A DNA stretch of 64,000 nucleotides from Anaerovoracaceae bacterium (GTDB lineage Bacteria > Bacillota > Clostridia > Peptostreptococcales > Anaerovoracaceae), in NCBI GenBank assembly GCA_040308005.1, contig JAWRIG010000024.1, positions 1,429-65,428 on the forward strand, written 5' to 3'. Positions 11,871 through 37,011 of the stretch are shown here, in pieces (within the stretch, counting starts at the first letter, position 1; each line of letters starts with the position of its first letter). The position numbers and the translations under genes are program-made. The notes under the pieces are model-generated. The model made no database searches. It was not told the origin of the DNA and saw nothing but the letters and a program-made list of their open reading frames with translations.

Positions 11871-11957
11871 TTGAAATTTTTAGTTGCAAAATGGTATATG
11901 TAATAGTAAAGTAGTTCTCCGAAAGGAAAATTCACATATATATAAGGAAGAAAACAT

Positions 11958-19415: not shown

Positions 19416-19639
19416 TATAGCGCAAGGGCTGACAGGGATTCCCGGAAAAACACAAAGCGAAACGGGATCCTGAAAGGGAAGCTGTAAAGTAAACCCGGTG
19501 GCTGGGCTGCTGAAGCCATAAGGCTCGGTTTCAGCAACTCAGTTGCTGCAGGCACCATGGATGAAACCTGCACCTGATGCAGGTTCGGAGAACAGAAAGA
19601 AAACTGCAGTGGAATGCAGACTTGCAAGAGGTAAACGAA

Positions 19640-20881: not shown

Positions 20882-20885
20882 AAAA

Positions 20886-22448
20886 ATGAAAAAGACCGCT
20901 ATATTAAAACAGAAGAAAACAGTACTGCACCTGGCTATAGTGCTGGTACTTCTCACAGCTGGACTGCTGCTGATCTCAGCGCAGTCTTTTGCTGCGTCAA
21001 GCCCTCAGGCTACAGGACAGGTAAATGCGCGTGCAGGTGCTTATCTGAGAAAGTCCACGAGCACCTCGTCCAAGAAGGTGGCTATTCTTAACGATAACAC
21101 CAGCGTTGTCATCTACAGAGAAGTGTTCAAGAGCAAGAAGAGCACATCCGCCAAGAAGATCTGGTACTATGTAAATGCCAACGGGATCAAGGGCTATATC
21201 CGTTCTGATCTTGTCGACAATGTCCGGTATACACTGCTTTCGGGTACGATCAAGAAGAAGAACACAGTCAGGTATGGAGCAGGAACCAAGATGGCCAAGG
21301 CGGGCACTCTCAAGAAGGGTGCCAAGGTAACTGTCTACCTCGATGCTAGGCCTGTTAAGAAGACCAAGGGCAAAAGCAAAGTGTGGTACAGAATACTATA
21401 TAAAGGAAAGTACTGCTACGTATGCTCAGCTTATGTCAAGATCACCGGCAGTGCAGGCCAGACCCCGGCACCATCAGCATCGAAACCTGCACCGGCTCCG
21501 GCCGCACAGCCTACACAGACTCAGGTCCAGCAGGTTGTCAGCACAGTGACCAACTCCTTCGCTAAGATGACGGATTCAGCCTTCGAGTCTTATCTCAGCA
21601 AGCAGGGATTCCCGGAGGCATACAAGAAGAACCTCAGGACTCTCCACAAGGCGCATCCTAACTGGGTATTCTCGGCATACAATACCGGACTCAAGTGGAA
21701 CGATGTCCTGAACAGGCAGACCAAAGCAGGAGTGTCGCTCGTGCATAAGAGCTACCCGAAATCCTACAGGTCATCCAGCAAGCAGGCGGAGCCGGGCTGG
21801 TACAATGCCTCATCCAAAGTAGTCGCATACTACATGGACCCTAGGAACTTCCTGAATGAAGACAGGATATACATGTTCGAGGATCTAAATTACAAGAAGG
21901 ACTACCAGACGACTGCTGTTGTCAACAAGATCATAAGCGGCACCAAGCTGGCAAGCTATGGATTCAATGCGAACATATTCATGAACGCAGGCTCCGCTTA
22001 CAACGTAAGCCCTGTATTCCTCGCAGCAAGAGTAAGGCAGGAGACAGGGGGCGACAGCATTTCTGTAAACGGAACCAAGTCAGGCGGCACAGTCGTCTAC
22101 AATCCGTTCAACATCGGAGCGACAGGAAAAGACCCTGCAACCAACGGACTCAAATACGCCAAGAAGCAGGGCTGGACCACACCGGCCAAAGCAGTCAACG
22201 GCGGCACACAGTTCATAGCCAGCGGATACATCAGCAAGAAGCAGAACTCCATCTACTTCCAGAGATTCAATGTATGCAATGGATTAAGCAAAGCGGGGAC
22301 ACATCAGTACATGACCAACATCATGGCTCCGTACAGCGAGGCATATATAACCAAGACATCATATGCCAAGTACGGTATCACCAATGAGGCGATCACGTTC
22401 CTGATCCCGCTGTATAACAGCATGCCGGGCAGCACCAAACTGCCGTAA
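20886..22448 (+). CDS. Secreted peptidoglycan hydrolase: two SH3b domains plus a C-terminal glucosaminidase (mannosyl-glycoprotein endo-beta-N-acetylglucosaminidase-like) domain
   Basis: Signal peptide ending SFAAS. SH3b signatures (GAYLRKSTS...WYYVNANGIKGYIRSDLV). The C-terminal motifs VSPVFLAARVRQETGG and YNPFNIGA are typical of the Glucosaminidase/LytD family. Confidence 0.8.
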   Translation: MKKTAILKQKKTVLHLAIVLVLLTAGLLLISAQSFAASSPQATGQVNARAGAYLRKSTSTSSKKVAILNDNTSVVIYREVFKSKKSTSAKKIWYYVNANGIKGYIRSDLVDNVRYTLLSGTIKKKNTVRYGAGTKMAKAGTLKKGAKVTVYLDARPVKKTKGKSKVWYRILYKGKYCYVCSAYVKITGSAGQTPAPSASKPAPAPAAQPTQTQVQQVVSTVTNSFAKMTDSAFESYLSKQGFPEAYKKNLRTLHKAHPNWVFSAYNTGLKWNDVLNRQTKAGVSLVHKSYPKSYRSSSKQAEPGWYNASSKVVAYYMDPRNFLNEDRIYMFEDLNYKKDYQTTAVVNKIISGTKLASYGFNANIFMNAGSAYNVSPVFLAARVRQETGGDSISVNGTKSGGTVVYNPFNIGATGKDPATNGLKYAKKQGWTTPAKAVNGGTQFIASGYISKKQNSIYFQRFNVCNGLSKAGTHQYMTNIMAPYSEAYITKTSYAKYGITNEAITFLIPLYNSMPGSTKLP

Positions 22449-22496
22449 TCATGATGCCATAATGACGGCATATATTATCAGAATATGAGCGAATCA

Positions 22497-22520
22497 AACC
22501 GGTCGAAAGGCCGGTTTTTT
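22497..22520 (+). terminator. Intrinsic terminator after the glucosaminidase gene
   Basis: AACCGGTC-GAAA-GGCCGGTT followed by TTTTT. Confidence 0.8.
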
Positions 22521-22912: not shown

Positions 22913-23311
22913 ATGAAACTGAATTTCGGTAAGAAAAATGATGTAGAAACAGCTGCTCAGGCAGGCCTCGAAGGTGCACATGCAGCTTCAGAAAATGCAG
23001 CAGAATTTGCGGCTGAAGTAAAGGGCGCTGCAGCAGCTAATAAGGAAGAAGAACTTGATCTGACCAAGCTCAAGAAGAAAGACCTTCTTGAGATCATGCT
23101 GAGGCAGGGTGAAGAGATCGATGCTCTGAGAGCTCAGGTTGAAGACCTTCAGGCCAGACTCGACAATAAAGAATTCGAACTCAGCAAGGTAGGCTCTATA
23201 GCTGAGGCATCGCTCGCAGTCACAGAGATATTCAAGGAAGCCGACAAGGCCGCCATGATATACCTTACCAACCTTAAGCGTATGGCTGAGGAGGGCATGA
23301 AGAATGAGTGA
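22913..23311 (+). CDS. Small coiled-coil protein of unknown function (132 aa, no signal peptide)
   Basis: ORF with heptad-like charged helices (LDLTKLKKKDLLEIMLRQGEEIDALRAQVEDLQARLDNKEFEL). It overlaps the following signal peptidase gene by 8 nt, which suggests translational coupling. I recognise no family. Confidence 0.5.
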   Translation: MKLNFGKKNDVETAAQAGLEGAHAASENAAEFAAEVKGAAAANKEEELDLTKLKKKDLLEIMLRQGEEIDALRAQVEDLQARLDNKEFELSKVGSIAEASLAVTEIFKEADKAAMIYLTNLKRMAEEGMKNE

Positions 23312-23930
23312 GCAGGATCTTCAGATGACTCCTGACATCATCGAGGCTCCGGAAGTCCCGGCGGTGCCGCTGCCGGACACCGAGACCATCAGGGCAGCAT
23401 ATGAGAAAGTCTCGTATGCCGACAAGCTCAGGAAGTCCATCATCAGCACGACCAACATCCTTATAGTAGTAGCTGCCGTAGCGATACTCGTGGCTATGCT
23501 CTTCCTGCCTGTACTCAGGATATACGGCAACTCGATGAACTCGACCCTCAACTCAGGCGAGCTCGTGGTATCCGTCAAGGGATCAAGCTTCAGGACAGGC
23601 GACATCATCGCTTTCTACTATAACAACAACATCCTGGTAAAGCGTGTAATGGCTAATCCTGGCGACTGGGTGGACATGGACCTCGACGGCAACGTCTACG
23701 TCAACCAGCAGCTGGTCGAAGAGCCTTACCTGACGGAGAAGGCCTTCGGCGAGCCGGACATCGACTTCCCGTACCAGGTGCCGGATGACAGAGTGTTCGT
23801 CCTCGGTGACAACAGAGATGTCTCGATAGACTCGAGATACAAGTCGGTAGGATGCGTTTCATCAGAACAGATAGTTGGCAAAATAGTCTTCCGCGTCTGG
23901 CCGCTCAATCGCATCGGACCGATACATTAA
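23304..23930 (+). CDS. Signal peptidase I (S26 family, bacterial P-type Ser/Lys dyad)
   Basis: N-terminal TM segment. Box B YGNSMNSTL (Ser nucleophile), box D ILVKRVMANPGD (Lys), box E VLGDNRDVSIDSRY. Confidence 0.9.
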   Translation: MSEQDLQMTPDIIEAPEVPAVPLPDTETIRAAYEKVSYADKLRKSIISTTNILIVVAAVAILVAMLFLPVLRIYGNSMNSTLNSGELVVSVKGSSFRTGDIIAFYYNNNILVKRVMANPGDWVDMDLDGNVYVNQQLVEEPYLTEKAFGEPDIDFPYQVPDDRVFVLGDNRDVSIDSRYKSVGCVSSEQIVGKIVFRVWPLNRIGPIH

Positions 23931-24134: not shown

Positions 24135-25826
24135 ATGAAGAAAACAAAACGTATTTTTGCGATCTTCATGACATTGACACTCGCAATGTCAATGCTGATC
24201 GCAAGCAGCGCAGTGTCATTCGCAGCTGAAGGTGATGGCTATACTGTTACTATTACTGGGAATCCTCAGGATAAAGGAACACATAGCTACGAAGCTTACC
24301 AGATATTCAAAGGCAATCTAAATGAAACTACTGGTGCTTTAGGCAATTTACAGTGGGGCTCTGGTATATCTGAAGCAGGCAAAACGGCTCTTGGTGATGC
24401 AAAAACATACGCAGAGTCTATGACAGAAGAAAATGCTGCAGAAAAAGCTGCTGAGCTCGCACAGTATCTTACTTCTCCTGAAAAGACCGGTACAACTTCA
24501 ATCACAGGCCTTGAGGGGGGATATTATCTGATTCAGGATGCAACTTCTTCACCAACTGGTGATAGTGCTGCCAAGACAAAGTTCATCCTCAAGGTAATAA
24601 AAGATGAAACTGTAAATGTAAAATCATCAGTTCCGACTGTTGAAAAGAAAGTACAGGATATTAATGATTCGGATACAACTCCGACTCTTTCATCTTTACA
24701 GGATTCTGCAGACTATGATATTGGAGATAAGATTCCTTATACTGTAACAGCAACTATAGGAACCGGTATTGATTATTTCGAATCCTACAGCATGCAGTTT
24801 GCAGATAAAATGAGCAAGGGACTTTCTTTAATAGAGGACACCACCGGCGCTGATGCATGGTCAATTAAACTGATCAGAACTACCACGTCCGGAGAAGGGG
24901 ATGAAGCTACCACTACTGACACTGAAGTTGCAGATTTAACCTCTCTCTTCACAATAACATCAGCTGCTTCAACCTCTGATAAAACATGGACCTGGACAGC
25001 TACTAATATCATGAAGAATGGTGATACAGCTATCGATGTTCAGGCTGGTGATAAAGTAGTACTTACCTATAAGTGCATTTTAAATAAAGATGCTGTTATA
25101 GGTTCGGCAGGAAACCCGAATGAAGTTCAACTTAAGTTCGACAATAATCCGAATAAATCGGGCGAAGGTAAACCTGCTGGTACTACTCCATGGGATAAAA
25201 ACATAGTGTTTACTTACAAAACTGTGTTTAACAAAGTTGAGAATGTAGAAGAAACACTTACAGCTGAGCAGTATGCGGCTCTATCTGAGGCTGAGAAGGC
25301 AAAATGTACTGAAGTAACTGCTGACGACGGTACTAAAACTTATAAGAGAATGGTTGAACAGCCACTTGTAGGTGCTGACTTTAAACTTGAAAAGAAAGTG
25401 AATGGTGAATGGACCGATGTAACTACTTTAGGATCGGGTCAGAATAAGCCTTCGAAGACAGGCGATGCTTCTGGTTCAACTTTCGAGTTTAAAGGACTCG
25501 ATGATGGTGACTATAGACTTACAGAGACAACGACTCCTCCTGGATATAATACTATTGATCCTATCGTATTCACAATAACTGCAACTCATGATATCGAAAG
25601 TGCTAATCCTGCGCTTACAGCTTTATCAGGAACAGATGGCAAAGAATTTGTTATGACTTCTAATCTGCAGGCTGGATCACTTACAGCTGCTATTGTGAAC
25701 GAAGAAGGCGCTGTTCTTCCGGCTACCGGTGGTATCGGTACTATCATCTTCTACGTACTCGGTACTCTGCTCGTAGTTGGATGCGGCGTTGTTCTGATCT
25801 CGAAGAAGAGAATGGAGAACAAGTAG
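24135..25826 (+). CDS. LPxTG-type (LPATGG) sortase-dependent pilin / isopeptide-domain fimbrial subunit
   Basis: Signal peptide (AVSFAAEG). The SpaA-type N-terminal motif YEAYQIFKG. The E-box-like motif YRLTETTTPPGYN. C-terminal LPATGGIGTIIFYVLGTLLVVGCGVVLISKKRMENK (sorting motif, TM segment, basic tail). A class C sortase gene follows. Confidence 0.85.
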   Translation: MKKTKRIFAIFMTLTLAMSMLIASSAVSFAAEGDGYTVTITGNPQDKGTHSYEAYQIFKGNLNETTGALGNLQWGSGISEAGKTALGDAKTYAESMTEENAAEKAAELAQYLTSPEKTGTTSITGLEGGYYLIQDATSSPTGDSAAKTKFILKVIKDETVNVKSSVPTVEKKVQDINDSDTTPTLSSLQDSADYDIGDKIPYTVTATIGTGIDYFESYSMQFADKMSKGLSLIEDTTGADAWSIKLIRTTTSGEGDEATTTDTEVADLTSLFTITSAASTSDKTWTWTATNIMKNGDTAIDVQAGDKVVLTYKCILNKDAVIGSAGNPNEVQLKFDNNPNKSGEGKPAGTTPWDKNIVFTYKTVFNKVENVEETLTAEQYAALSEAEKAKCTEVTADDGTKTYKRMVEQPLVGADFKLEKKVNGEWTDVTTLGSGQNKPSKTGDASGSTFEFKGLDDGDYRLTETTTPPGYNTIDPIVFTITATHDIESANPALTALSGTDGKEFVMTSNLQAGSLTAAIVNEEGAVLPATGGIGTIIFYVLGTLLVVGCGVVLISKKRMENK

Positions 25827-26079: not shown

Positions 26080-26961
26080 ATGAAGGATTGGATAAAACGG
26101 AATCTGCTGACAGTGATAATGGCGGTCGGAATGTTCGTCGGGGTCGTACTTCTCCTGTATCCATCGGTGTCTAACTACTGGAACTCATTTCACCAGACAA
26201 GGGCTATCGCGGGATACACAGAAGCTGTAAGCAAAATGAGTAAAGAAGACTACTCAGCTATACTCGATTCTGCCCATGAGTACAATGAGCGTCTTGCCGA
26301 GACAGGGATGCGGTGGCACATGGACGATGTGCAAAGGGAGGAGTATAATAAGCAGCTTAGTATTAGCGACTCCCAGATAATGGCTTACGTGAGCATGCCG
26401 AAGTTCCACATCAAGTGCCCTATATACCATGGCACCGATGAAGCCATTCTGCAGGTAGCGGTCGGACATCTCGAAGCATCATCGCTTCCGGTCGGAGGAG
26501 AGAGCACACATACACTCATCTCCGGACACCGCGGACTTCCGTCAGCAAGGCTGTTCACAGATATAGCCAAAATGAAAGAGGGCGACACGTGGACGATCAC
26601 GGTGCTTAACGAGACTTTGACATATGAATGCGATCAGATAAGAGTAGTCCTGCCTGACGACCTGTCGGATTTGCAGATAGAAGAAGGCAAAGACCTCTGT
26701 ACACTGATCACATGTACACCATACGGTATCAACACACACAGGCTGCTGGTAAGAGGACACAGGATACCTAATGTAGACGGTATCGCAGACCTCACGGCAG
26801 ACGGCATCCAGATAGAGCCGGTGTTCATAGCACCGTTCCTGGCAGTGCCGATACTGATACTGTTGATCATAATGATGCTGATCACCTCCAGACGTGTAAA
26901 ACGGATGGGGTCAGAAGAATATAAATCTATATACCTCGAGAAGAAGGGGCTGAAGAAATGA
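26080..26961 (+). CDS. srtC: Class C (pilin-polymerising) sortase
   Basis: N-terminal TM segment. LISGHRGLPSARLF (catalytic His), TLITCTPYGINTHRLLVRG (TLxTC Cys and conserved Arg), and a C-terminal TM segment with a basic tail, typical of class C enzymes. Confidence 0.9.
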   Translation: MKDWIKRNLLTVIMAVGMFVGVVLLLYPSVSNYWNSFHQTRAIAGYTEAVSKMSKEDYSAILDSAHEYNERLAETGMRWHMDDVQREEYNKQLSISDSQIMAYVSMPKFHIKCPIYHGTDEAILQVAVGHLEASSLPVGGESTHTLISGHRGLPSARLFTDIAKMKEGDTWTITVLNETLTYECDQIRVVLPDDLSDLQIEEGKDLCTLITCTPYGINTHRLLVRGHRIPNVDGIADLTADGIQIEPVFIAPFLAVPILILLIIMMLITSRRVKRMGSEEYKSIYLEKKGLKK

Positions 26962-28502
26962 AGACTAAGAGACTAACAAAAGGCAAAGCAATACTCGCAT
27001 TCGTGCTGATGCTTATTCTTGCTTCCGGTTTTTACTTGCTGGGAGAGAAAGCATACGCTGATGAAGGCGGAACTGTAACAGTCAAAGTTGGTAATGTGGT
27101 TGGCGACAATGTTGGCTCTTTACCAGCAGGCACTACTTTTACATATAAAGTGTACAAAGTAGGTGATTATGACCGAAGCACAGACGGTACAGTTGTATAT
27201 AAACTGGATCCTGATCTTGGTGAAGCTTCGGGTGTAGCTCAGTTTGTGTCCCAGCCGTCAAGCTTTGATCCAGAGCAGGATGATTGGGCAAAGACATGGG
27301 TTGCACAAGCGAATACATTAGCTACATATATCAATTCTCTTGATGACAAGCCAGACGTTGTAGGTAATCCATACACAGTCACTCTTACTAAGGAAGGAAC
27401 TGAAGAAGGTGCTGCAAGTTTTGATGTAAATCTTCCAACTAACGGCCTTTATCTTCTCTTTGGTGAACCTGTTCAGGTGGGAGATTATCTGTGGACGCCG
27501 CAGCCTGTATTTCTCAGCGCTCTGAATGGGTCTGAAAGGAATTTCGACTACAGCAATTCAGTTGCCAAGAAGATGATATCAAGAAAAGTTGTATTTAATC
27601 ACAACGTCGCAAAGAACTGGATTGGAGATGAAGATATCTCTGACTATGTTCGTCCGAGTAAAATCGCTGTCAAAATCATGTACGGAACAACCTTGGTAGA
27701 TACTGTGATTCTTGAGCGCGACAAGGGATATACATTCTCATGGAAGCATAAAAAACTTGAGGAACATGCGACACAGATTACATACTATCCTGAAGGAGAT
27801 ACTACGGGAAGAGTAATACCTGTTAAATCTACTGACGCAGGATGGTCCGTAGTTGAACTTAGAGAAGCAGATGCTGCAGGTACTGAAGCAGAAGCTGAAG
27901 CCCCACTTCTTCGTTACTATACAACTGAATATGAGCCACTTTCTGTAGACGATGCTACAGAATCCTTAACAATTAAGAACACTTTCACATGTAAGTATCT
28001 GAAGTTACGGAAATCCATTGATGGGTTCGACGGTAACGGTCAGAACATGACATTCTCCTTCAAGGTTGAAGGCCTGAATTCTTCCGGAACTGTCATATAT
28101 ACCAATCACGTAGGTGTCTCCTTCACACAGGAGGATGGTTTGACCAAAGAGGTTGTCCTGAACTACATACCGGGAGCTGTAGAGTCGATAAGAGTCTCAG
28201 AGGAATATTCAGGTAATTATAATCCTGTAGGTGATATCGAGATCTCAGAACTGTATGAAGAAAAAGATTCACCTAAAGCCGCAGACAATGCTGATGCTGC
28301 AGGAACTGATGATGAAACAGCGACAGCAGAAACTACTGAGAAGAAGGTCGTAGGCTGGGAAGCTGAAGCAAACAACGAACATGGCAATCACGGCCCTAAG
28401 GGTGGAATCGTCAACAGATATAACCACGGAGAGGACCCTGTAAAGGATCCTGGCAGTGACCCGGATGCACCGGCTCCTGTAGTACCAGACTCGCCTAGAT
28501 AA
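26958..28502 (+). CDS. Secreted Cna-B-type surface protein without a sorting signal (514 aa); first gene of cassette copy A
   Basis: Signal peptide ending AYADE. Cna-B-like segment KNWIGDEDISDYVRPSKIAVKIMYG. The C-terminal module LKLRKSIDGF...EEYSGNYNP is shared with the 1847-aa protein. The protein ends in a Pro/Asp-rich tail with no LPxTG. Its ATG overlaps the sortase stop (ATGA). Confidence 0.7.
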   Translation: MKTKRLTKGKAILAFVLMLILASGFYLLGEKAYADEGGTVTVKVGNVVGDNVGSLPAGTTFTYKVYKVGDYDRSTDGTVVYKLDPDLGEASGVAQFVSQPSSFDPEQDDWAKTWVAQANTLATYINSLDDKPDVVGNPYTVTLTKEGTEEGAASFDVNLPTNGLYLLFGEPVQVGDYLWTPQPVFLSALNGSERNFDYSNSVAKKMISRKVVFNHNVAKNWIGDEDISDYVRPSKIAVKIMYGTTLVDTVILERDKGYTFSWKHKKLEEHATQITYYPEGDTTGRVIPVKSTDAGWSVVELREADAAGTEAEAEAPLLRYYTTEYEPLSVDDATESLTIKNTFTCKYLKLRKSIDGFDGNGQNMTFSFKVEGLNSSGTVIYTNHVGVSFTQEDGLTKEVVLNYIPGAVESIRVSEEYSGNYNPVGDIEISELYEEKDSPKAADNADAAGTDDETATAETTEKKVVGWEAEANNEHGNHGPKGGIVNRYNHGEDPVKDPGSDPDAPAPVVPDSPR

Positions 28503-28522
28503 GAAAAGGAGGATGATGCGAT

Positions 28523-29035
28523 ATGAAAAAGAATAAGTTACTGATCATGGCGCTCAGCCTCACACTGTGTCTGACAGTGAGCATCGGACTTGCCGTAGCT
28601 TACTTCACAGACTACGAAGATGCTAAGGGCGGAGCGGTCCTTCACCTCTCGGGAAGAACCGAGATTGAGGAAGATTTCGCTGGCAACGATAAGCTTGTCA
28701 CGATAAAAAATGTCAGCGAGGATGATGTTGACATGGTAGTCAGGGTGCTCGCATATGGAGAGAATCTCCAGTACAGCACAAAGACAGAAGGCGACTGGAT
28801 CAAAGATTCTAAAGAGGACAACATCTGGTACTTCCATAAGGTACTTAAGAAGGGTGATTCCACCAGTGTACTGAGAGTTCATGTTGAAGGCCGTGTAGAT
28901 CCTGAAGACCCAATCGACTTCGAGGTCACTGTTGTACATGAGTCTGAGAGAGTCACATATACTCAGGACTCAGCAGGCAACAATATAGTAAAGATTCCTG
29001 ATGGATGGAATGTATCCTCCATCAGTGCAGAGTAG
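28523..29035 (+). CDS. Small TasA/camelysin-like protein with a SipW-cognate-type signal peptide (170 aa)
   Basis: N-terminus MKKNKLLIMALSLTLCLTVSIGLAVAYFTDYEDAKGG matches the TasA-class signal and cleavage region (xAxF[TSN]D). The C-terminal beta-strand FEVTVVHESERV resembles the TasA FSFEATQ strand. Strong RBS AAAGGAGG. Confidence 0.7.
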   Translation: MKKNKLLIMALSLTLCLTVSIGLAVAYFTDYEDAKGGAVLHLSGRTEIEEDFAGNDKLVTIKNVSEDDVDMVVRVLAYGENLQYSTKTEGDWIKDSKEDNIWYFHKVLKKGDSTSVLRVHVEGRVDPEDPIDFEVTVVHESERVTYTQDSAGNNIVKIPDGWNVSSISAE

Positions 29036-29046
29036 GAGGTGCGGAA

Positions 29047-29889
29047 ATGAAAAAGACTAAACTTTCAAAACGCACTATGGCTCTGCTGGTCGCAGCAGGA
29101 CTCCTGTTCACAGGCGGCGCAGTCACCGGCACAAGAGCAGCTCTGAACATCCAGAGTGAATACTACCGCGCACACTTCTATCTGAATCACCTGCAGGTGC
29201 ACCTGATCGAGAATGGCGAGGATGTCTGCGACAGAGCAGGCCATGCCAATGACCTGAACGGCGACGCCAAGACAACAGGTGAGCTCGCAACCGATCTCAA
29301 GTATGAGCACAAGGTAGATGGCGATGAAGTCCTCGGATCAGTCGAGCCGGGCAAAACATACAGAGAAGAGATCGCAGCACAGAACGGCAGCGACATCGAC
29401 GAGTTCGTAAGACTCACCGTACGCAAGTACTGGATGGAGCCTGCTGAAGACGGCAGCATGGTCAAGTCATCAACACTCAGCCCTGACCGAATCCAGCTGA
29501 TGTACGGCGGCAAGGTCGGATGCAACACTGGAGCATGGGCAGAGAACTCAGCTGAAAAGACCGCAGAGAGCAGCACTTATTACTATAAGTCAGACCTCAG
29601 CAGCGGAGAGACATCAGCATTGCTCTTCGACAAGATCAAGATCGACGCAGACCTTGCAGACCTCGGACAGATGACAACTACCGAGACGCAGGAAGGAAAC
29701 AAGAAGGTCTACACATACACATACCAGTATGACGGAGCTACCTTCTACATCGAGGCTGACGTACAGGCTATCCAGACCCACAATGTCAATGAGGCCATCA
29801 AGAGCCAGTGGGGCGTCAGCAACGTAACAGCTAATTACAGTGATCCACAGAACAACGGACAGGGCAGCGGAACGCTGTCAGTCAACTAG
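29047..29889 (+). CDS. TasA/camelysin-like secreted protein (280 aa)
   Basis: Signal LLVAAGLLFTGGAVTGTRAALN. The paralogue in copy B reads GTRAALTYFSEDY. The C-terminal FYIEADVQAIQTHNV resembles the terminal TasA strand (F.F.A.Q). RBS AGGAGG before the ATG at 29047. Confidence 0.65.
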   Translation: MKKTKLSKRTMALLVAAGLLFTGGAVTGTRAALNIQSEYYRAHFYLNHLQVHLIENGEDVCDRAGHANDLNGDAKTTGELATDLKYEHKVDGDEVLGSVEPGKTYREEIAAQNGSDIDEFVRLTVRKYWMEPAEDGSMVKSSTLSPDRIQLMYGGKVGCNTGAWAENSAEKTAESSTYYYKSDLSSGETSALLFDKIKIDADLADLGQMTTTETQEGNKKVYTYTYQYDGATFYIEADVQAIQTHNVNEAIKSQWGVSNVTANYSDPQNNGQGSGTLSVN

Positions 29890-29900
29890 GAGGTGCCGGA

Positions 29901-30686
29901 ATGATCAAGAGAATGATTAAGATCCTGCCGGTCCTCGCACTGGCACTGATGATGGTCATGAGCATGTCCTCAGCGGTACTCGCTGAGAGCACAAGCTATG
30001 ACGGCATATGCACATTCACAGGCAGCAAGATGGTATCGAGTTTCGACTCAGCCCAGCTTGCAAGCGCAGTCTCAGGACTGCAGCCTGGTGATGATGTCAC
30101 ATTCACAGTAGAGTACAAGAACAGATACGACGGCGCTACAGACTGGTACATGGAGAACAGCATCGTACAGACGCTGGAGAAAGCCAACGCCAAGAAGAGA
30201 GTAAGCGGCACCGGCCAGGCAGAGAACGGCGGTTACACATACGAGCTGACACTTCACAAGTCTGACGGTACGACAAGCGTGCTCTTCAGCAATGCCACAG
30301 TCGGCGGCGAAGCTGTAGTAAATAACAGAGAAGGTCTCGAGCCTGCAACCAACGCACTCGAAGACTGGTTCTACATTGACACACTGAAGAAGAACGGAGA
30401 CTCCGGCACAGTAGTACTTCACGTAGCATTCGACGGAGAGACCGAAGTAAACGACTACATGGATACAGACGGTGAACTTAACGTAAGGTTCGCTGTAGAG
30501 CTGCCGCCGGAAGGAACCCCGCCTGAAGAGACCGAGGTAATCAAGAAGGTAGTCAAAACAGGAGACCAGAGCAGACTCCTCATGTGGGCGTCGATCGGCC
30601 TCGTAGCAGGCCTCCTGATGTTCGTGCTCGCATTCCTCAGCAGGAAGAAAGATGAGAAAGCAGACGGCAAAGGAGGTAGAGCGTGA
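29901..30686 (+). CDS. TasA-like beta-sandwich protein with a C-terminal VKTGD sorting-signal-like anchor (261 aa)
   Basis: Signal peptide ending VLAES. GETEVNDYMDTDGELNVRFAVE resembles the TasA NKYQG...F.F.A.Q region. The C-terminus is KKVVKTGDQSRLLMWASIGLVAGLLMFVLAFLSRKKDEK (motif, TM segment, basic tail). Confidence 0.65.
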   Translation: MIKRMIKILPVLALALMMVMSMSSAVLAESTSYDGICTFTGSKMVSSFDSAQLASAVSGLQPGDDVTFTVEYKNRYDGATDWYMENSIVQTLEKANAKKRVSGTGQAENGGYTYELTLHKSDGTTSVLFSNATVGGEAVVNNREGLEPATNALEDWFYIDTLKKNGDSGTVVLHVAFDGETEVNDYMDTDGELNVRFAVELPPEGTPPEETEVIKKVVKTGDQSRLLMWASIGLVAGLLMFVLAFLSRKKDEKADGKGGRA

Positions 30687-31708
30687 TGAAGACTTACAGA
30701 AGAATTCTTACGATCGTCCTCAGCCTGATGCTGACACTGAGCCTCAGCGGCATAGCAGCATTCGCAGCTGAGGGAGACAACCTGGACAACGCCGGCCTGA
30801 CATACACAGTCACCATCTACTCAGGTGACTCGGGCACATTCAAGGACGGAAGCACAGTAAAGAAGATCACCGGCCTTTCATACGGAGATACAGTCAAGCT
30901 GAGCATCAACTCAGAGGACTATGCTCCGGTACTGAACAAAGACGCCGAGAAGTACTATGCACGCGGCTTCAAGATCGCAGGACACGATAACGACGAGATC
31001 AGCCGTCTGCAACTGGTTGACTACAACTACCAGGTAACAGGCGATGAGTCCTTCACAGTCGCATACGGCATGAAGGGCGGCATGGTCAAGTACACAGTCA
31101 ACTATGTTGACGAGAACGGCAACACACTCCATCCGTCAGCAGAATACTACGGAATGGCAGGAGACTATCCGGTAGTTTCGTACCAGTATGTCGAGGGATT
31201 CGCACCTAATGCGTATAACCTCGGTAAGACACTTACAGCCAACGAGGCAGACAACGTATTCACCTTCACATATGCTCCGAGTACTCTGACTGCTGAAGAG
31301 CAGGCAGCAGCCGCAACACAGGTAGTTACAGTCGTAGCTGCCGGCGGTAACGCAGGAGCTGGTGCCGGAGCAGGAGCTGGTGCGGGTGCAGGCGGCGCCG
31401 GAGCTGCAGGAGCAGGCGGAGTCAACATTGGAGACAATGCTACACCGGCAGCAGGAGCACCTAACGTAGTCGACCTCGACAACGGAGATGTACCGCAGGC
31501 AGAACCTGATACCGACGAGAAGGAAGGCGAGCTTGCAGGACAGAAGACAAGAGGCATCATCATCGCAGGAGCATGCGCAGTGCTGCTCGCAGCAATAGCT
31601 GCTTTCGCACTCGCAAAGCGCAAGAGCGAAGAAGATGAAGACGAAGAAGACGAGGATGAAGACGAGGTCGAGAACAAGACCGAGACCGAGTCTGAACCAA
31701 AACACTAA
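30686..31708 (+). CDS. Type I membrane protein with a MucBP-like ectodomain, a Gly/Ala-rich linker and a poly-acidic cytoplasmic tail (340 aa)
   Basis: Signal peptide (AAFAAEG). The MucBP-like segment is VKYTVNYVDENGNTLHPSAEYYGMAGDYPVVSYQYVEGFAPNAYNL...NVFTFTY. The linker is GAGAGAGAGAGAGGAGAAGAGG. TM segment IIIAGACAVLLAAIAAFALA, then EEDEDEEDEDEDE. RBS AAAGGAGG lies 8 nt upstream of the ATG at 30686. Confidence 0.65.
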   Translation: MKTYRRILTIVLSLMLTLSLSGIAAFAAEGDNLDNAGLTYTVTIYSGDSGTFKDGSTVKKITGLSYGDTVKLSINSEDYAPVLNKDAEKYYARGFKIAGHDNDEISRLQLVDYNYQVTGDESFTVAYGMKGGMVKYTVNYVDENGNTLHPSAEYYGMAGDYPVVSYQYVEGFAPNAYNLGKTLTANEADNVFTFTYAPSTLTAEEQAAAATQVVTVVAAGGNAGAGAGAGAGAGAGGAGAAGAGGVNIGDNATPAAGAPNVVDLDNGDVPQAEPDTDEKEGELAGQKTRGIIIAGACAVLLAAIAAFALAKRKSEEDEDEEDEDEDEVENKTETESEPKH

Positions 31709-31745: not shown

Positions 31746-32312
31746 ATGAAAACCAGCAGCAGTAAGAGAGTCATTAAATGGATCATCGCTTTGCTTATAG
31801 CAACTATGATCGGATATGGCGGATACAGCTACTGGCAGATAAGCAAATCGATGCGCCATGCTAATGAGGTCATCGAGGTCATGAAGACACTCGTACCGAA
31901 CCTCGGAGTAGATACTGGGATATCGACAGGACAGGGCCGTGATCCGCTCGCGGCACTATCCATCGACCAGAAAGACATAGTGGGCTGTATAGAAGCACCT
32001 TCCATCGACCTGATGGCACCTGTAACGGCCTCAGGCTACGAGGAAGAGGGTTTTGCCACTATAGTCAGCGGATCGCCTGTTAAAGGAAATCTGCGCATCA
32101 TAGGGGGGCGCAAAGACGTTTTCAGAAAGATAGCAAAGGCAAAGCCGGGCGATATCGTGGCTTTCACGGATATCGACGGTGTGAGGTACAACTATCAGGT
32201 CACGACCCAGTTCCACCTCAAGGACTGGGACGAGGCCGACCATGACCTCATGCTCTGCTATGAAACAGACGACGATACGCAGTTCGTACTGGGCTGCAAG
32301 AGTGAACGGTAA
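31746..32312 (+). CDS. Small sortase-like protein with a degenerate active site (188 aa)
   Basis: N-terminal TM segment. Sortase-like strand order: VGCIEAPSIDLMAPV (cf. G.I.IP.I.L..PV), NLRIIGGRKDVFRKI in place of the (L/I)AGHR..(F) His motif, PGDIVAFTDIDGVRYNYQV, and DLMLCYETD in place of TLxTC. Confidence 0.5.
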   Translation: MKTSSSKRVIKWIIALLIATMIGYGGYSYWQISKSMRHANEVIEVMKTLVPNLGVDTGISTGQGRDPLAALSIDQKDIVGCIEAPSIDLMAPVTASGYEEEGFATIVSGSPVKGNLRIIGGRKDVFRKIAKAKPGDIVAFTDIDGVRYNYQVTTQFHLKDWDEADHDLMLCYETDDDTQFVLGCKSER

Positions 32313-32328: not shown

Positions 32329-35300
32329 ATGAATACGCTTGACCAGATCGTAACAATGATCCGCGCCAAAGCGGAGATCCTCTATAAACAGAAGAATCAT
32401 CTTCTTTTGCTATCATGTATTGTTGTGTTTATTACAACATATATGCTTATTTTTCCTGCGCGTACTCTTGATGCTACGGAAGCATCTGAACAGGGTGGCA
32501 TCGATGTTCCAGTTAGTCTTGAGGCATTAGAGCCGGAGACAAACATCAATGAATCTGTTAATACAGAAAATAGTGATCAGTCATCAAGCGAGACACTTGA
32601 TGAAATACATGAGGATTATAACTCCAAAGAAGATATCGGCCCATCTGACGAATCAAAAGTCTCAGATATCGTAGATGATGCAACTGAAACAATAGATGCT
32701 GATAAGCAATCAGAAACTGAGGATGTTCCATCCGAAGACAGTGGAGCTGTAGATGTAAAGAGTGCTGATTCAATTGATGACAGCAGTGCAGCAAGAGATA
32801 ACGCAGTACATGAACTAACTTACAACAGCAGGAACTGTACTATCACAGTTTCATATAATGATGAAGCATGCATACCTGACGGAGCCAGCCTTAAAGTTTC
32901 GGAAATTCTTCCGAAGAATAAAGATTATCAGGAGTACTACAATCAGACCCTTGATGCGGCTGGGCTTGCTCAGGATACTGATAAATCAGCAGAACCTGAA
33001 CTTATCCGAGTATTTGACATAGAAATATGGGCAAACGGAAACAAGATAGAACCAAAAGATGAAGTTACTGTCAGCATTAAGATGACTGATACTCCAGAAA
33101 ATAAAGATGCAAAACCTACTGTTGTACATTTTGCTGAGGAGGGGTCGGAAGTTATACCTGTAACTGAGCCAAAAGATGAAGATGCCGACATCCAGTTTGC
33201 CACAAGTGGATTTTCGGTATATGCAGTAGTTTATTCAGTAGACTTTTCGTATGAAATCAACGGCGAGAAGTTTGAGTTCTCAATGGATGGGGCTGATTCT
33301 GTAAGTCTTAGAGAATTAATTGAAAAACTTCATGTTTATGAAGCCAGCGGTGTTGATGCTGAATCATCATTGAATATGTTCATGGAAGATATTGATTCAG
33401 TTACATTCAGTGATGAATCGCTTCTTGTACCGGTCAAAGTAGAAGAGGATTCTAAAGTAGGGAAAATCAAAACTGATTTGGGGCTCTTTCCGACTTATCC
33501 GCTTGGTCTCAGCCAGAAAGAAGTACTTGCTCTCAATGCTGTTGAATACATGGCAGGAGACTGGGTGCTTATAAGCATGAAAGCATTTGATACTGTGGAA
33601 ACCCTTACTGTCGAAATGAAAACGGGGGAGAGTTTCTCAATAAATGTTACTGATGCTCAGGATGCTCAGATGGTTGGAGATGAAGTCTTAACGGTTACAA
33701 ATCCGGCAGGAACGACTATAGATCTGTTTGACTACTGGATCATCGATCAGGAAACTGTTGGCAGAGATGCATGGGGAGATCTCAACCAGGGTTGGGGCGG
33801 ACATGGTGACGAAGATGGACTTAACGGCACCGGTAATAATAAAGGAATAAATTCAAGTACATCAGATGCTGAACATGGTCATGCACTTAAGTTCTCTCCT
33901 GCCTGGGAAGGAACTGTGTTCAACGGTTCTAAGGATGGCTATTATGGCCCTTGGTCTAGCCTGAATTCAAATGGCAGAGATGGTCTGAACAGCTATACAG
34001 GCAGCGGCGATCCATTCCAGGGTATCGTACAGGGAACTCTGTCGAATGGATACCCTATATTGACCAATAATGACACTATCGGTTCTACAGGTGAATCACT
34101 TGCATACCTGTTCGACCCGGAGATAAACCATACGGGTAAAGCGAGTTATCCTGGCGCAGACAGGCTCCTGTACGTGGATAAAGATGGTTATTATACATAC
34201 GACAGCCGTGATTATAAAGCCGATTATAAGAGTGACGGAACCTTTAGACTTACAGAACAGACTTCTGACGATGGAGAGATAAGGGGTTTCTGGCCGTTTG
34301 GAACCCAAAATTTCTGGGTCGGTATGCATGTCAACACACAGTTCTCGATTCCTGTTAACGGACAGGTTCTTAACCCTCGTGGTGAGTATAAAGACATGCA
34401 GTTCGAATTCTCAGGAGATGACGATACATGGCTTTACATTGACGGGATTCTAGTAGGAGACGGAGGTGGTATTCATAATCGTACTGAGATTGATATCAAC
34501 TTCGCCGAGGGAAAAGCAACGGTAACCGGAGAGAAGGCCGGAGGTCATTCTGGGCATTTCGAAGTAGTTCAATACCTGGATGATTTATTCAAGGCTGCTG
34601 GAAAATATAACGATGATGATTGGGAAGATATAGGTGACGGAAGCGGCCATAAGCGTTTTAAAGCAGGAACTTATCATACATTTGATATGTTCTATCTTGA
34701 ACGCGGAGGCGGTGAATCTAACTTATATATTCACTACAATCTGGTATCGACTGCAGACTTCACAGCTCATAAGTCCTACAAGGGATATGATGACGAAGAT
34801 GTTCTACAGAGAAACGAGTTCAGATTCGAGCTTGTTGGACTTGATGGCAAGTATCGCTCTGTGTGGAGTGAAGAAGCAGGTGACTATGTTCTGGTCAAAG
34901 AGGACGATACTTCAAGGGCAGTAATGCCGCATGCATCCAGTTCAGGTGCAGGTACAACCGTATCTCCATACTACAATGATAATACATCGACGGGAATGAG
35001 TGATGGCTCGACGGTCCGTTCTCAGACGTATATAACCGGAAACGTAGAAGACGGCAATGTCAACTTCGGTACCGCAGAGATATCCGAACAGGATATGCAT
35101 GACTGTGATGAGAAGAACCCACCTGTATACAGGTACATCGTTCGTGAGATCGTGCCGGATGATGCTGTAAACGGTGATGGTGTAACATGGGAAGATGCTA
35201 CTGATGAACAGAAAGCTGCAGGCGGATTTGTCAAGGATTCAGTCATATATGATGGTACGATTTATTATATGACCGGCCGCATCACATCATGGACTGAGAC

Positions 35301-37011
35301 CGATGCGAGCGGAAGAGAATTCACACGCTACGGATTAAGTAAAACATATTACACAGATGATACATACACTACTAAGAAAGCAGATATAACATTTATAGAT
35401 TTCAGAAACGAATATACTCCAGATGTATCTGATTTTGACTTCAATAAAGTCAATGTGAATGAGGAACCAGTTGAAGGTGCGGTCTTCCAGCTGTTCAGGG
35501 ATTCAGCATGCAAGATACCTGCTAAGAACAGTAACAATGAGAATATAACCGCAACTTCGGATGGACAGGGAAAAGTCTTTTTCACAAACGTAAGAACAGG
35601 CATCTATTTTATGAAAGAAGTATCCGCTCCTGATCCATATGAAGTCAATCCAACTGTTTATAGAGTAACCGTCTCAAAACAGGGATCGCATATGTCGGTT
35701 AATTCTGATCAAAACAATACACCTGTTACTGAAGTCGTAAACACAAAACCAGGAGACATCACGGTCACAAAAAAATGGCTCGATGCAAACGGAAATGAGT
35801 TCAGTGGCGCGGGATATCCTGCAACTATTCAGTTAAGAAGGTATAAAACTGTAAGAACAGGTCCGGAACCTGAGACACATAATGTAACATTGCACTTTCA
35901 TTTCCCATATGCTCATTGGTTGCCTGATAAACAACATCAGACATTTGGTCCATATGTGATTACAGGTAACTCTGTAATAATCCACTGGACTGTAGGAGGT
36001 TGCCAATTCTTCTGGGAGGGAGATCCGGATACTGGAACATATTCTAGACAGATTACAGATTCCAGTGGCGATAATCTTGTGCAACTACCGTTAGATCAGG
36101 ATTTGGATTTACATTTTTATGGAAATCAGAATTGGGCAGCTGCCAATCTGAATGAACCATCCGTTGATGGGGCTTTTGATGACAGTAAAGAACTGATAAT
36201 TGATACAGATTTTCCTTCTTCTTCTGAAGAGGCTAAAGCTACTCAGACTCTTACTGCTGCAAGCCACATGCACGCATGGTCTATAGGGGCAGGAAGTGAA
36301 TACGATTTCCCAGCATTTAATGATGTTGGTGACTATCTATATTATGTGGTCGAACTTAATGAAGACGGAGAACCAGTGGAGATAAATGAGGATACAGGCA
36401 GTGGAATGACTCTTGTGTCGATAGAGTATAAACCAGAGAAGATTGAGGACAAAGGTATCACTCATGGTCTGGTAACTGTAACAAATAAATTATCAGCTCC
36501 ACAAAGCATTAAACTTGATATAAGAAAAACAGATGATGCCAAAGATAGTACAAATTACCTTGCAGGAGCTGTGTTTGCACTCGAATATAAAGTGAATGGC
36601 ACTACATGGGTAAAGGCTAATAGTGTTGAAGGAATAGAGATACCTCAACTTGATAACAATGGACAGTTTACTGTTCCGGAGTCCGGTATAAAACTTGAAG
36701 GCCTTATTGATGGTCAGTACAGGCTAAAAGAAATATCAGCTCCTCAAGACTATGTAATTATTGAGCCGTATCCAGTGCAGTTCACAGTTTCCGCTGGTAC
36801 TATATCAAACACTGATGGAACAATTGATGGCGTTAGATATACAGCTGCAACCGATACTGAAGATGCAGTGTTTATCATACCAAATACACCTGGCGTCGAG
36901 CTCCCTATTACGGGCGGCATCGGCACCACCATATTCTATGTACTCGGATCGATCCTCGTGATCAGCGGCGCGATATACTTTGTCAGCCGCAGACGGGTTG
37001 CTAACAAATAG
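32329..37011 (+). CDS. Giant LPxTG-type (LPITGG) surface adhesin, 1560 aa, with a PA14/fibro-slime-like domain and SpaA/Cna-B-type domains
   Basis: The start is set at MNTLDQIV (32329) by homology to the N-terminus of the next gene, plus an RBS. It has an N-terminal TM/leader, an acidic Ser/Asp-rich region, and the shared stalk motif FSVYAVVYSVDFSYE. The PA14-like core is GFWPFG...FSGDDDTWLYIDGILVGDGGGIHN...FYLERGGGESNLYIHYNL (about 34280-34750). The SpaA-like fold is VEGAVFQLFRD...GIYFMKEVSAPDPYEV. The C-terminus is LPITGGIGTTIFYVLGSILVISGAIYFVSRRRVANK. Confidence 0.85.
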   Translation: MNTLDQIVTMIRAKAEILYKQKNHLLLLSCIVVFITTYMLIFPARTLDATEASEQGGIDVPVSLEALEPETNINESVNTENSDQSSSETLDEIHEDYNSKEDIGPSDESKVSDIVDDATETIDADKQSETEDVPSEDSGAVDVKSADSIDDSSAARDNAVHELTYNSRNCTITVSYNDEACIPDGASLKVSEILPKNKDYQEYYNQTLDAAGLAQDTDKSAEPELIRVFDIEIWANGNKIEPKDEVTVSIKMTDTPENKDAKPTVVHFAEEGSEVIPVTEPKDEDADIQFATSGFSVYAVVYSVDFSYEINGEKFEFSMDGADSVSLRELIEKLHVYEASGVDAESSLNMFMEDIDSVTFSDESLLVPVKVEEDSKVGKIKTDLGLFPTYPLGLSQKEVLALNAVEYMAGDWVLISMKAFDTVETLTVEMKTGESFSINVTDAQDAQMVGDEVLTVTNPAGTTIDLFDYWIIDQETVGRDAWGDLNQGWGGHGDEDGLNGTGNNKGINSSTSDAEHGHALKFSPAWEGTVFNGSKDGYYGPWSSLNSNGRDGLNSYTGSGDPFQGIVQGTLSNGYPILTNNDTIGSTGESLAYLFDPEINHTGKASYPGADRLLYVDKDGYYTYDSRDYKADYKSDGTFRLTEQTSDDGEIRGFWPFGTQNFWVGMHVNTQFSIPVNGQVLNPRGEYKDMQFEFSGDDDTWLYIDGILVGDGGGIHNRTEIDINFAEGKATVTGEKAGGHSGHFEVVQYLDDLFKAAGKYNDDDWEDIGDGSGHKRFKAGTYHTFDMFYLERGGGESNLYIHYNLVSTADFTAHKSYKGYDDEDVLQRNEFRFELVGLDGKYRSVWSEEAGDYVLVKEDDTSRAVMPHASSSGAGTTVSPYYNDNTSTGMSDGSTVRSQTYITGNVEDGNVNFGTAEISEQDMHDCDEKNPPVYRYIVREIVPDDAVNGDGVTWEDATDEQKAAGGFVKDSVIYDGTIYYMTGRITSWTETDASGREFTRYGLSKTYYTDDTYTTKKADITFIDFRNEYTPDVSDFDFNKVNVNEEPVEGAVFQLFRDSACKIPAKNSNNENITATSDGQGKVFFTNVRTGIYFMKEVSAPDPYEVNPTVYRVTVSKQGSHMSVNSDQNNTPVTEVVNTKPGDITVTKKWLDANGNEFSGAGYPATIQLRRYKTVRTGPEPETHNVTLHFHFPYAHWLPDKQHQTFGPYVITGNSVIIHWTVGGCQFFWEGDPDTGTYSRQITDSSGDNLVQLPLDQDLDLHFYGNQNWAAANLNEPSVDGAFDDSKELIIDTDFPSSSEEAKATQTLTAASHMHAWSIGAGSEYDFPAFNDVGDYLYYVVELNEDGEPVEINEDTGSGMTLVSIEYKPEKIEDKGITHGLVTVTNKLSAPQSIKLDIRKTDDAKDSTNYLAGAVFALEYKVNGTTWVKANSVEGIEIPQLDNNGQFTVPESGIKLEGLIDGQYRLKEISAPQDYVIIEPYPVQFTVSAGTISNTDGTIDGVRYTAATDTEDAVFIIPNTPGVELPITGGIGTTIFYVLGSILVISGAIYFVSRRRVANK

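Follow-up and report, generated by a model that had tools for sequence, protein, structure and literature searches.

The window analysed here comprises 64,000 nucleotides (nt) of contig JAWRIG010000024.1 (positions 1,429 to 65,428), which belongs to the genome assembly GCA_040308005.1 of an Anaerovoracaceae bacterium. It carries two copies, A and B, of a cassette of five genes that we call X1 to X5, each copy consisting of five open reading frames (ORFs) on the same strand. In this paper, we describe the cassette proteins, their conservation in other genomes, and the surface assembly that they may form. The cassette was first pointed out in an initial annotation of the window, which was made by reading the sequence without database searches.

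The five-gene cassette and its two copies

Copy A lies on the forward strand and starts with A1, the short form of X1 (26958-28502, 514 aa), followed by A2 (28523-29035, 170 aa), A3 (29047-29889, 280 aa), A4 (29901-30686, 261 aa), and A5 (30686-31708, 340 aa). Copy B, also on the forward strand, starts with B1, a giant form of X1 (50984-56527, 1847 aa), and continues with the paralogues B2 (56551-57090, 179 aa), B3 (57092-57979, 295 aa), B4 (57991-58734, 247 aa), and B5 (58736-59731, 331 aa). The start codons of A3, B3, A5, and B5, and thus the lengths given for these proteins, were set by their homologues. The ORFs match in coordinates and lengths what the initial annotation had reported, namely, the same gene order occurring twice, and the two-copy observation is confirmed as far beyond chance. 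Its description of strong ribosome-binding sites and tight or overlapping junctions also holds, as the sites are of the GGAGG type and the intergenic gaps range from -4 to +23 nt. Promoter and terminator scans gave results at chance level.

The four downstream genes, described initially as colinear paralogues, are indeed so: BLASTP between the copies gave identities of 36% for A2 and B2 (E 9e-33), 49% for A3 and B3 (E 3e-77), 46% for A4 and B4 (E 9e-73), and 47% for A5 and B5 (E 3e-47), the last over the N-terminal ~199 aa only. The short motifs quoted for these pairs were all found, but B4 reads LEPGDDVTF rather than LQPGDDVTF. At the DNA level, the copies resemble each other only in patches (63-72% identity), and because of this they are best read as old, diverged paralogues and not as the product of a recent duplication. 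When the ten cassette proteins were compared with Pfam and NCBIfam, nothing passed threshold; the one Pfam domain noted for B1 is a SpaA domain (residues 1246-1330).

Conservation of the gene order

In a collection clustered at 90%, members at E <= 1e-3 numbered 103 for X2, 295 for X3, and 241 for X4, and a search with the X3 profile returned 974 representative clusters at 50% identity. No member of the X2, X3, and X4 families has a Pfam domain, and all recorded names are "hypothetical protein". A genome scan yielded 26 loci, mostly from rumen and gut metagenome-assembled genomes (MAGs), which are labelled Anaerovoracaceae, Mogibacterium, Lentihominibacter, Eubacterium sp., Ca. Copromorpha, or "Clostridiales". 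The initial annotation had named Lachnospiraceae as a clade to survey; the relatives found were instead Anaerovoracaceae, Mogibacterium, and Eubacterium MAGs. It is important to note that these MAGs are incomplete, so that any absence of a SipW or sortase gene reported below applies to the loci and not to whole genomes.

Wherever a related locus spans the region (22/22), the order X1-X2-X3-X4-X5 is retained. The remaining four of the 26 were left out of this count, three being cut by contig ends and one (L024) being a probable assembly chimera. In the latter, X3 lies in frame with a multi-pass membrane protein (L024:9902-11230), and a real fusion was rejected, as a MAG assembly chimera is most likely. 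An additional locus, found independently through the X1 module when metagenomes were scanned with a B-type subset of the module alignment, has the identical five-gene order. The order also persists in two distant genomes (L030 and L032), where X3 is ~32% identical and the genes run pilin, sortase, (peptidase,) X1 with DUF5979, X2, X3, X4 with VKTGD, X5. The earlier view of the five genes as a co-conserved unit is therefore well founded, and such strict synteny over large distances suggests that their products belong to one complex.

Two genomic contexts can be distinguished. Type A, represented by copy A and seven loci, consists of a gene for a small coiled-coil protein, a bacterial-type signal peptidase I, an LPXTG pilin, a class C sortase whose stop overlaps the start of X1, a short X1 (430-494 aa), X2 to X5, a gene for a 188-aa sortase-like protein, and giant LPXTG adhesins. 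In one of these loci (L019), the sortase gene is present together with the cassette and the 188-aa gene, and no match to the peptidase or the pilin was obtained. Type B, represented by copy B and about 15 loci, consists of a giant X1 (1300 to >3100 aa) followed by X2 to X5, and beyond these five genes no recurring neighbour was found in the type B loci.

X2 and X3 as remote relatives of BsaA and TasA

Profile comparison indicates that X2 and X3 are homologous to each other. Initial hhalign comparisons among the X2, X3, and X4 families were weak or driven by the signal peptides; with a more diverse X3 profile, X2 and X3 matched at 96.7% (E 4e-10), and their trimmed mature regions, from which the signal peptides had been removed, matched at 95.2% (E 3e-8).

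After the null scans of single proteins, whole families were scanned instead, and consistent sub-threshold BsaA matches were obtained only for X2 and X3. In the X2 family, 41 of 45 members match NCBIfam TIGR04090 (BsaA-family SipW-dependent biofilm matrix protein) and 33 match TIGR04088 (SipW-type signal peptide, best E 8e-6), all of these matches being below or near the cut-offs. TIGR04090 is likewise matched by 15 of 36 members of the X3 family and by 29 of 52 more distant relatives (best E 7e-10). Across the two families, the best E-values for this model run from 8e-7 to 7e-10, sub-threshold yet consistent. Within the window, A3 and B2 reach 13.9 and 13.1 bits, respectively, against the TIGR04090 cut-off of 60 (E 0.06 for B2), and B2 reaches 14.2 bits against the TIGR04088 cut-off of 19 (E 0.037). 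The initial annotation had suggested scoring the proteins with Peptidase_M73/TasA models; none of them scores with Peptidase_M73 and none passes an NCBIfam cut-off, and Pfam as a whole, Peptidase_M73 included, gave no match to X2 or X3. Taken together, the family matches support X2 and X3 as remote, sub-threshold relatives of the BsaA/TasA superfamily. Thus, where three TasA-like subunits had been proposed, two can be kept as remote relatives on the strength of TIGR04090, and the third, X4, shows no sequence relation to them.

In TasA and TapA, an N-terminal strand is donated to the next subunit. A2 has a putative SipW-type signal peptide with cleavage between ...AVA and YFTDYEDAKGGAVLHLSG. 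In the X2 family, the N-terminus is invariant, with cleavage after the alanine that precedes YFTDYE.A.GGA.L.L.G (AYFTDYE being invariant), and 14 of the 29 invariant or near-invariant positions of X2 fall within residues 22-44. The N-terminus of B3, RAALTYFSEDY, contains TYFSEDY and resembles the YFTDYE motif of X2. In the AlphaFold2 (AF2) model of X2, a beta-sandwich with a mean predicted local distance difference test (pLDDT) score of 88.3, residues 35-45 just past the predicted cleavage site are unstructured, and residues 31-40 have a pLDDT of about 60. Residues 28-38 of BsaA are likewise unstructured or of low confidence in monomer models (PMC11580942). An N-terminus that is invariant yet modelled as unstructured may be taken as a hint of a donor strand. 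A BsaA-like N-E-K isopeptide triad was also looked for by eye in the donor regions of X2 and X3 and was rejected, the candidate Asn positions not being conserved.

X4, its C-terminal tail and a natural fusion with X3

X4 has an ordinary signal peptide with an AxA site, a beta-sandwich, a disordered linker, the motif x[V/I]KTGD, a transmembrane (TM) helix, and a basic tail. This tripartite arrangement of motif, helix, and basic tail agrees with the sortase-signal-like C-terminus that the initial annotation had ascribed to the protein. Over 43 sequences, the motif takes the form x-[V/I/A/T...]-[K...]-T-G-D, in which T220, G221, and D222 alone are invariant, and the TGD tail is also kept in the distant loci. 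The models matched by X4 are of the LPXTG-anchor type only and all sub-threshold; TIGR01167, for example, is matched by 23 of 43 members at E <= 1, and TIGR04090 by none of the 43. B4, in which TVKTGD precedes a TM helix and a basic tail, reaches 14.4 bits with LPXTG_anchor (TIGR01167; cut-off 15.9) and E 0.098 with srtB_target.

The AF2 model of X4 (pLDDT 71.7) has a helix at residues 224-255, followed by an RKK tail. Foldseek searches with it ranked the Sulfolobus 0406 thread (7pnb), an archaeal donor-strand subunit, first with a TM-score of about 0.3, and TasA (5of1) fourth with a probability of 0.97 and a TM-score of 0.28-0.34. As for the motif, a disputed precedent for Val at the Pro position is NVQTG of C. 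difficile CbpA, for which SrtB showed no cleavage in vitro (PMC4155245). For the BsaA oligomers of C. perfringens, anchoring in the membrane is reported (PMC11580942).

In one locus, X3 and X4 are naturally fused in frame (P0366, L028:564-1997, 477 aa). Its X4 part has no signal peptide, ~20 residues separate the two domains, and SVKTGD and the TM tail are retained. The gene order is X2, X3X4, X5, sortase-like gene, adhesin, and the contig is present in two samples. The fusion supports direct contact between X3 and X4 in an assembly. An hhalign probability of 100% between the X3 profile and X4 was discarded as an artefact, this fusion having been inside the alignment.

X1, an adhesin without an anchor

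X1 has a signal peptide and lacks both an LPXTG motif and a TM anchor; its length varies from 430 to >3100 aa. Whatever the length, the C-terminal ~140 residues are occupied by a conserved module, in which K31, E94, N152, and N165 are invariant and which ends in a strand of the form G-[SG]-G-[VI]-[VI]-N. This module, about 100-140 aa long, is also the stretch common to A1 and B1, whose BLASTP alignment is limited to the C-terminus (31% over 99 aa, E 1.5e-4). The family alignment thus bears out the earlier claim that the first gene product has no anchor of its own and a conserved C-terminal module. The label "Cna-B" given to A1 finds no Pfam support: A1 has no match in Pfam or NCBIfam, and in B1, Pfam gave no anchor match beside the SpaA domain. 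The module weakly matches DUF5979 (5/17 members) and DUF7601 (4/17 members); X1 of L030 has both domains on record, and X1 of L032 has a weak DUF5979. The immunoglobulin (Ig)-like domains of X1 show a K/E/N pattern, and any isopeptide bond in them is putative. A search of PDB sequences with the module profile returned chance matches only.

The gene directly 5' of X2 is always X1, and this bears on how the adhesin should be understood. The cassette might be a biofilm matrix operon, in which X2 and/or X3 would be secreted and form matrix fibres like those of BsaA in C. perfringens and TasA in B. subtilis, X1 would be an independently secreted matrix adhesin, as BsaC is, and X4 and X5 would be separate envelope proteins. 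The BsaA-family relationship of X2 and X3 and the lack of a recognisable anchor in X1 fit such an operon, and the bsa operon of C. perfringens also encodes a large secreted non-TasA protein, BsaC (PMC11580942). However, an independently secreted adhesin would not be expected to keep one C-terminal module at any length and a fixed place directly before X2, the anchor-type tail of X4, and its fusion to X3, do not suit a separate envelope protein, and the strict synteny of all five genes also speaks against it. We therefore regard a matrix operon as rather unlikely.

X5, signal peptidases and sortases

X5 is a type I membrane protein with a signal peptide, two beta domains, of which the second is MucBP-like, a low-complexity linker, a conserved DLDDxxTPxA motif, a single TM helix, and an acidic tail. 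The MucBP label given to A5 initially stands as a family resemblance, since 10 of 21 members of the family match Pfam MucBP at E <= 1 (best 9.7e-5); A5 itself stays below the cut-off (PF06458, 15.9 vs 23 bits). B5 has a weak DUF7601 match at residues 31-96, and a search of PDB sequences with the X5 profile gave chance matches only. The D-L-D-D-x-x-T-P-x-A motif lies just outside the TM helix (31480-31560 and 59470-59560 in the window), and in A5 it is preceded by a similar copy, IGDNATPAA. It might be a processing or recognition site.

Upstream of copy A, a signal peptidase I (23304-23930, forward strand) scores 123.5 bits with the bacterial-type model TIGR02227 (cut-off 47) and 25.7 bits with the SipW/archaeal model TIGR02228 (cut-off 51.85), which rules it out as a SipW. 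Its Ser box (GNSM) and Lys box (VKRV) are present, so the enzyme is probably active. Its PDB relatives are SpsB and the S. pyogenes pilus factors SipA/LepA, and it is conserved upstream in six type A loci. In the distant relatives, a peptidase of the endoplasmic reticulum (ER)/archaeal or SipW type stands directly after X5: that of L030 (10827-11351) has its best PDB matches in SEC11A/C (E 1.6e-5), and that of L032 (11013-11564) is its homologue at 60-62% identity. L005 also has a SipW-type peptidase adjoining X5 (12498-12998, minus strand), and L014 has a bacterial-type signal peptidase I after X5. The recurrent linkage to SipW-type peptidases in relatives supports a TasA-type reading of the cassette.

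The slot after X5 that holds the SipW-type peptidase in distant relatives is taken by the gene for the 188-aa sortase-like protein in copy A (31746-32312, forward strand) and in eight related loci. This protein scores 24.1 bits with Pfam Sortase, below the cut-off of 26.6. Compared with S. aureus SrtA, Gly replaces His120 in 9/9 homologues and there is no equivalent of Arg197, whereas Cys is present in 8/9. For this reason, a role as a conventional transpeptidase for VKTGD appears unlikely, and we found no support for this protein as the active cognate sortase of that motif. For the same reason, wall anchoring through VKTGD, as envisaged in the initial annotation, is unproven. In L032, the SipW-type peptidase is followed by a 275-aa sortase (11602-12429) with typical His and Cys motifs (...IIYGH... 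and ...LSTCAY...). This sortase may be what acts on VKTGD at that locus.

The position of X5 directly before the SipW-type peptidase in L030 and L032 also invites a non-structural explanation, in which X2 to X5 would form a membrane-associated chaperone, peptidase-accessory, or export complex that folds or releases X1. Peptidase-accessory membrane proteins (DUF5305) are known in TasA-like loci (bioRxiv 10.64898/2026.01.04.697558), and a catalytically degenerate sortase-like protein might serve as a chaperone. X5, however, gave no match to DUF5305, the cleavable signal peptides and BsaA-type features of X2 and X3 are typical of fibre subunits, and three different secreted beta-sandwich proteins exceed what a chaperone would need, so that this explanation is clearly improbable in our view.

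A further explanation arises from the class C (pilus) sortase gene (26080-26961, forward strand; NCBIfam class_C_sortase, 271.9 bits), whose stop overlaps the start of A1 by 4 nt. The cassette could be an accessory or hybrid module of the neighbouring SpaA-type sortase pilus; for example, the short X1 could be a terminal acceptor to which the class C sortase attaches the pilin polymer, and X2 to X4 could tether this pilus to the membrane rather than to the wall. The srtC/X1 overlap recurs in seven related loci, pilin, sortase, and X1 to X5 recur together in the distant L030 and L032, the X1 module has an invariant Lys, and pilus factors are among the relatives of the upstream peptidase, as noted above. 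Most loci, however, including copy B of the window, are of type B, where X1 is giant and neither a pilin nor a sortase gene lies close by, and no pilin-motif Lys was identified in X1. We consider a pilus module very unlikely as an account of the cassette.

Neighbourhood of the cassettes in the window

Upstream of the copy A operon lie two genes for SH3_3-domain proteins, with a gene for an XRE-type helix-turn-helix regulator further upstream (19577-22448), and a good terminator-like hairpin (22496-22517) stands between these genes and the operon. A gene for a 132-aa coiled-coil protein (22913-23311, forward strand, by translation) overlaps the start of the signal peptidase gene, and its orthologues lie directly upstream of the peptidase in six related loci. 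The protein has no Pfam match on record and no family assignment, and we read its gene as the first of the copy A transcription unit. Between the peptidase and the class C sortase is the gene for the LPXTG backbone pilin of a sortase-dependent pilus (24135-25826, forward strand), which matches Pfam GramPos_pilinBB, SpaA, and Gram_pos_anchor as well as NCBIfam RrgB_K2N_iso_D2 and LPXTG_anchor.

The sortase-like gene is followed by genes for two giant LPXTG adhesins, one with SpaA domains (32422-37011, about 1530-1590 aa) and one with Cna_B and SpaA domains (37132-45129, 2665 aa), so that the same operon holds canonical anchored adhesins and the anchor-less X1. Between the two cassettes are an IS21-type pair (45882-48210), encoding a protein with a Mu-transposase C-terminal domain and an IstB ATPase, and an ORF on the minus strand (48358-49467) that we take, from the look of its sequence, to be transposase-like. 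Directly upstream of cassette B, a 356-aa RelA/SpoT-domain protein of the small alarmone synthetase type is encoded (49659-50729). A third giant adhesin gene starts ~380 nt after B5 on the forward strand (60114-64000) and runs off the window after at least 1295 codons; its product resembles B1 at the N-terminus and may be the X1 of a further cassette.

A possible donor-strand assembly

We propose that the cassette proteins form a TasA/BsaA-type surface assembly that needs no chaperone, is joined by donor strands, and holds an anchor-less adhesin on the cell, and we put the probability of this reading at roughly 0.55. Linkage by donor strands, the order and polarity of the subunits, polymerisation of X3, and the type of anchoring are all proposed by analogy. 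In such a linear assembly, the order from tip to cell would be the gene order. X1 would be a Sec-secreted tip adhesin with its C-terminal K/E/N domain as the connector, X2 a small BsaA-like adaptor, and X3 a larger BsaA-like shaft subunit present in one or many copies. X4 would serve as the base or anchor, either through its C-terminal TM helix or through transfer to the wall at x[V/I]KTGD, and X5, a single-pass protein with a MucBP-like ectodomain, could serve as a second anchor, as a partner of the peptidase, or as a platform for assembly.

The invariant N-terminal strands of X2 and X3 would be freed by a dedicated signal peptidase and would then complete the fold of a neighbouring subunit. 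In the window, this role would fall to the upstream bacterial-type enzyme, and in distant relatives to the SipW-type enzyme after X5. Two polarities may be envisaged. In one, the N-terminal strands of X4, X3, and X2 would each enter the more distal subunit, and the X1 module would be the final acceptor; in the other, as in haloarchaeal Tat-fimbriae (tafi), the strands would point cellward, and the C-terminal strand of X1 would be the first donor. A defined X1-X2-X3-X4 stalk fits the data equally well as a homopolymer of X3.

Several observations weigh against this donor-strand assembly. Firstly, no cassette subunit reaches a Pfam or NCBIfam threshold as a TasA or BsaA protein, and A2 of the window matches neither TIGR04090 nor TIGR04088. 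Secondly, Foldseek with the X2 model returned generic beta-sandwiches only, none at E <= 1e-3, searches of PDB sequences with the X2, X3, and X4 profiles missed TasA and gave chance matches only, and the TasA-like fold matches of X4 have TM-scores of only about 0.3 and come from a model with a pLDDT of 72. Thirdly, X4 shows no sequence relation to X2 or X3 (hhalign probability <= 1%), and its motif has no Pro at position 2, where known sorting signals have Pro (or Ala). In addition, neither tblastn nor NCBIfam found a SipW-like gene in the 64 kb of the window, and the sortase-like protein beside copy A has neither the catalytic His nor the Arg. Finally, the X3::X4 fusion speaks against X3 forming a long homopolymer, at least in the organism that carries it.

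The donor-strand assembly can be extended to a general mode of displaying giant adhesins in Gram-positive bacteria, a tentative idea that we consider less likely than not. Here, any adhesin that ends in the K/E/N connector would be plugged onto a short TasA/BsaA-like X2-X3-X4 stalk independently of sortase. Equally tentatively, the link would be made by strand complementation, possibly locked by an isopeptide bond, and the base would be held by the xVKTGD/TM signal. At loci with a linked sortase, the short X1 might go further and join a pilus made by sortase to the stalk, a hybrid that would unite both principles by which Gram-positive bacteria build fibres.

Significance and comparison with known systems

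Fibres of the TasA superfamily are emerging as a widespread class of chaperone-free filaments in bacteria and archaea. The cassette is a compact and strongly syntenic case that bears on how the bacterial ones are anchored and what they carry: the same four small proteins invariably accompany an anchor-less adhesin, which can reach about 3100 aa, and the X3::X4 fusion gives a handle on subunit order. If the proposed assembly is true, searches based on LPXTG would miss part of the surface proteome in Anaerovoracaceae of the rumen and gut and in related Clostridia. The pair of connector and stalk could also become a tool for protein display.

The initial annotation regarded the cassette as an undescribed system. 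Our literature search found no paper that describes this five-gene cassette, but the claim is overstated, because anchored operons with several TasA/BsaA paralogues have been proposed before. Genes of the BsaA/TasA family often lie beside genes for LPXTG proteins, SpaA-domain proteins, sortases, and signal peptidases, and the several paralogues per operon have been taken to suggest heteropolymers (PMC11580942). AbpX loci encode tip proteins and minor subunits together with an LPXTG anchor protein, for which attachment to the fibril is predicted (bioRxiv 10.64898/2026.01.04.697558), and the tafi model has a TafC tip, a TafE adapter, a TafA core, and a TafF anchor (PMC11821415). The concept of an anchored TasA-family heteropolymer is thus not new, as heteropolymers, tips, and LPXTG anchors are already proposed in the first of these papers and in the AbpX preprint.

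A close parallel to the cassette in outline is the bsa operon of C. perfringens, sipW-bsaA-bsaB(-like)-bsaC with srtB adjacent (PMC11580942, PMC7395162). Both combine several diverged paralogues of the TasA superfamily with a large secreted non-TasA protein, the signal peptides of the bsa subunits are of the SipW type, as that of X2 appears to be, and TIGR04090, matched weakly by X2 and X3, is the BsaA family itself. In most C. perfringens strains, a bsaB-like paralogue has a sortase-type (LPXTG) signal and adjoins srtB (PMC11580942). The gene sets and orders differ, however; the cassette adds an X1 adhesin with a K/E/N connector and a MucBP-like X5, its anchor X4 is not recognisably BsaA-like and has xVKTGD instead of LPXTG, and the window has no SipW and a neighbouring sortase-like protein without His and Arg. 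Moreover, BsaA combines donor-strand exchange with an N35-K74 isopeptide lock (PMC11580942), and its N35-E56-K74 triad was not located in the cassette. The B. subtilis tapA-sipW-tasA operon has its own signal peptidase, which processes both the fibre subunit and a subunit with an anchoring or accessory role. In contrast to it, the cassette has five genes instead of three, no match to Peptidase_M73 or, in searches of PDB sequences, to TasA, an anchor with a C-terminal TM/sorting signal instead of TapA, and an added adhesin partner.

The tafi of haloarchaea (PMC11821415, PMC12337348) share the logic proposed for the cassette: a four-part linear design of tip, adapter, core, and base, beta-sandwich subunits joined by donor strands, no chaperone or usher, and a base with a C-terminal membrane span. 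Unlike the cassette, they are archaeal and Tat-exported, no sequence relation has been shown, and the strand donated by their tip is N-terminal, in contrast to the C-terminal conserved module of X1. AbpX-type loci (10.64898/2026.01.04.697558) resemble the assembly proposed here in having a fibril with minor subunits, a predicted tip protein, a signal peptidase, and a wall anchor predicted to be joined by donor-strand complementation. They belong to a different clade, are linked to cyclic di-GMP and two-component systems, and have canonical LPXTG or SLH anchors, and a giant adhesin that lacks an anchor and has a connector module is not described for them. SpaA-type sortase pili, lastly, share with the cassette its genomic neighbours (pilin, class C sortase, and LPXTG adhesins) and the SpaA/DUF5979-type Ig-like domains of X1 with their K/E/N pattern. 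In the cassette, however, X1 to X3 and X5 have no sorting signal, X4 has a sorting-like motif without Pro, and the mechanism proposed by analogy would be non-covalent or autocatalytic strand insertion rather than transpeptidation. Against this background, we consider the following to be new: the five-gene architecture with its model-less families; the anchor-less adhesins that share one connector; the KTGD signal without Pro; the degenerate sortase-like gene at the position that SipW has in distant relatives; and the close link with a class C sortase pilus operon.

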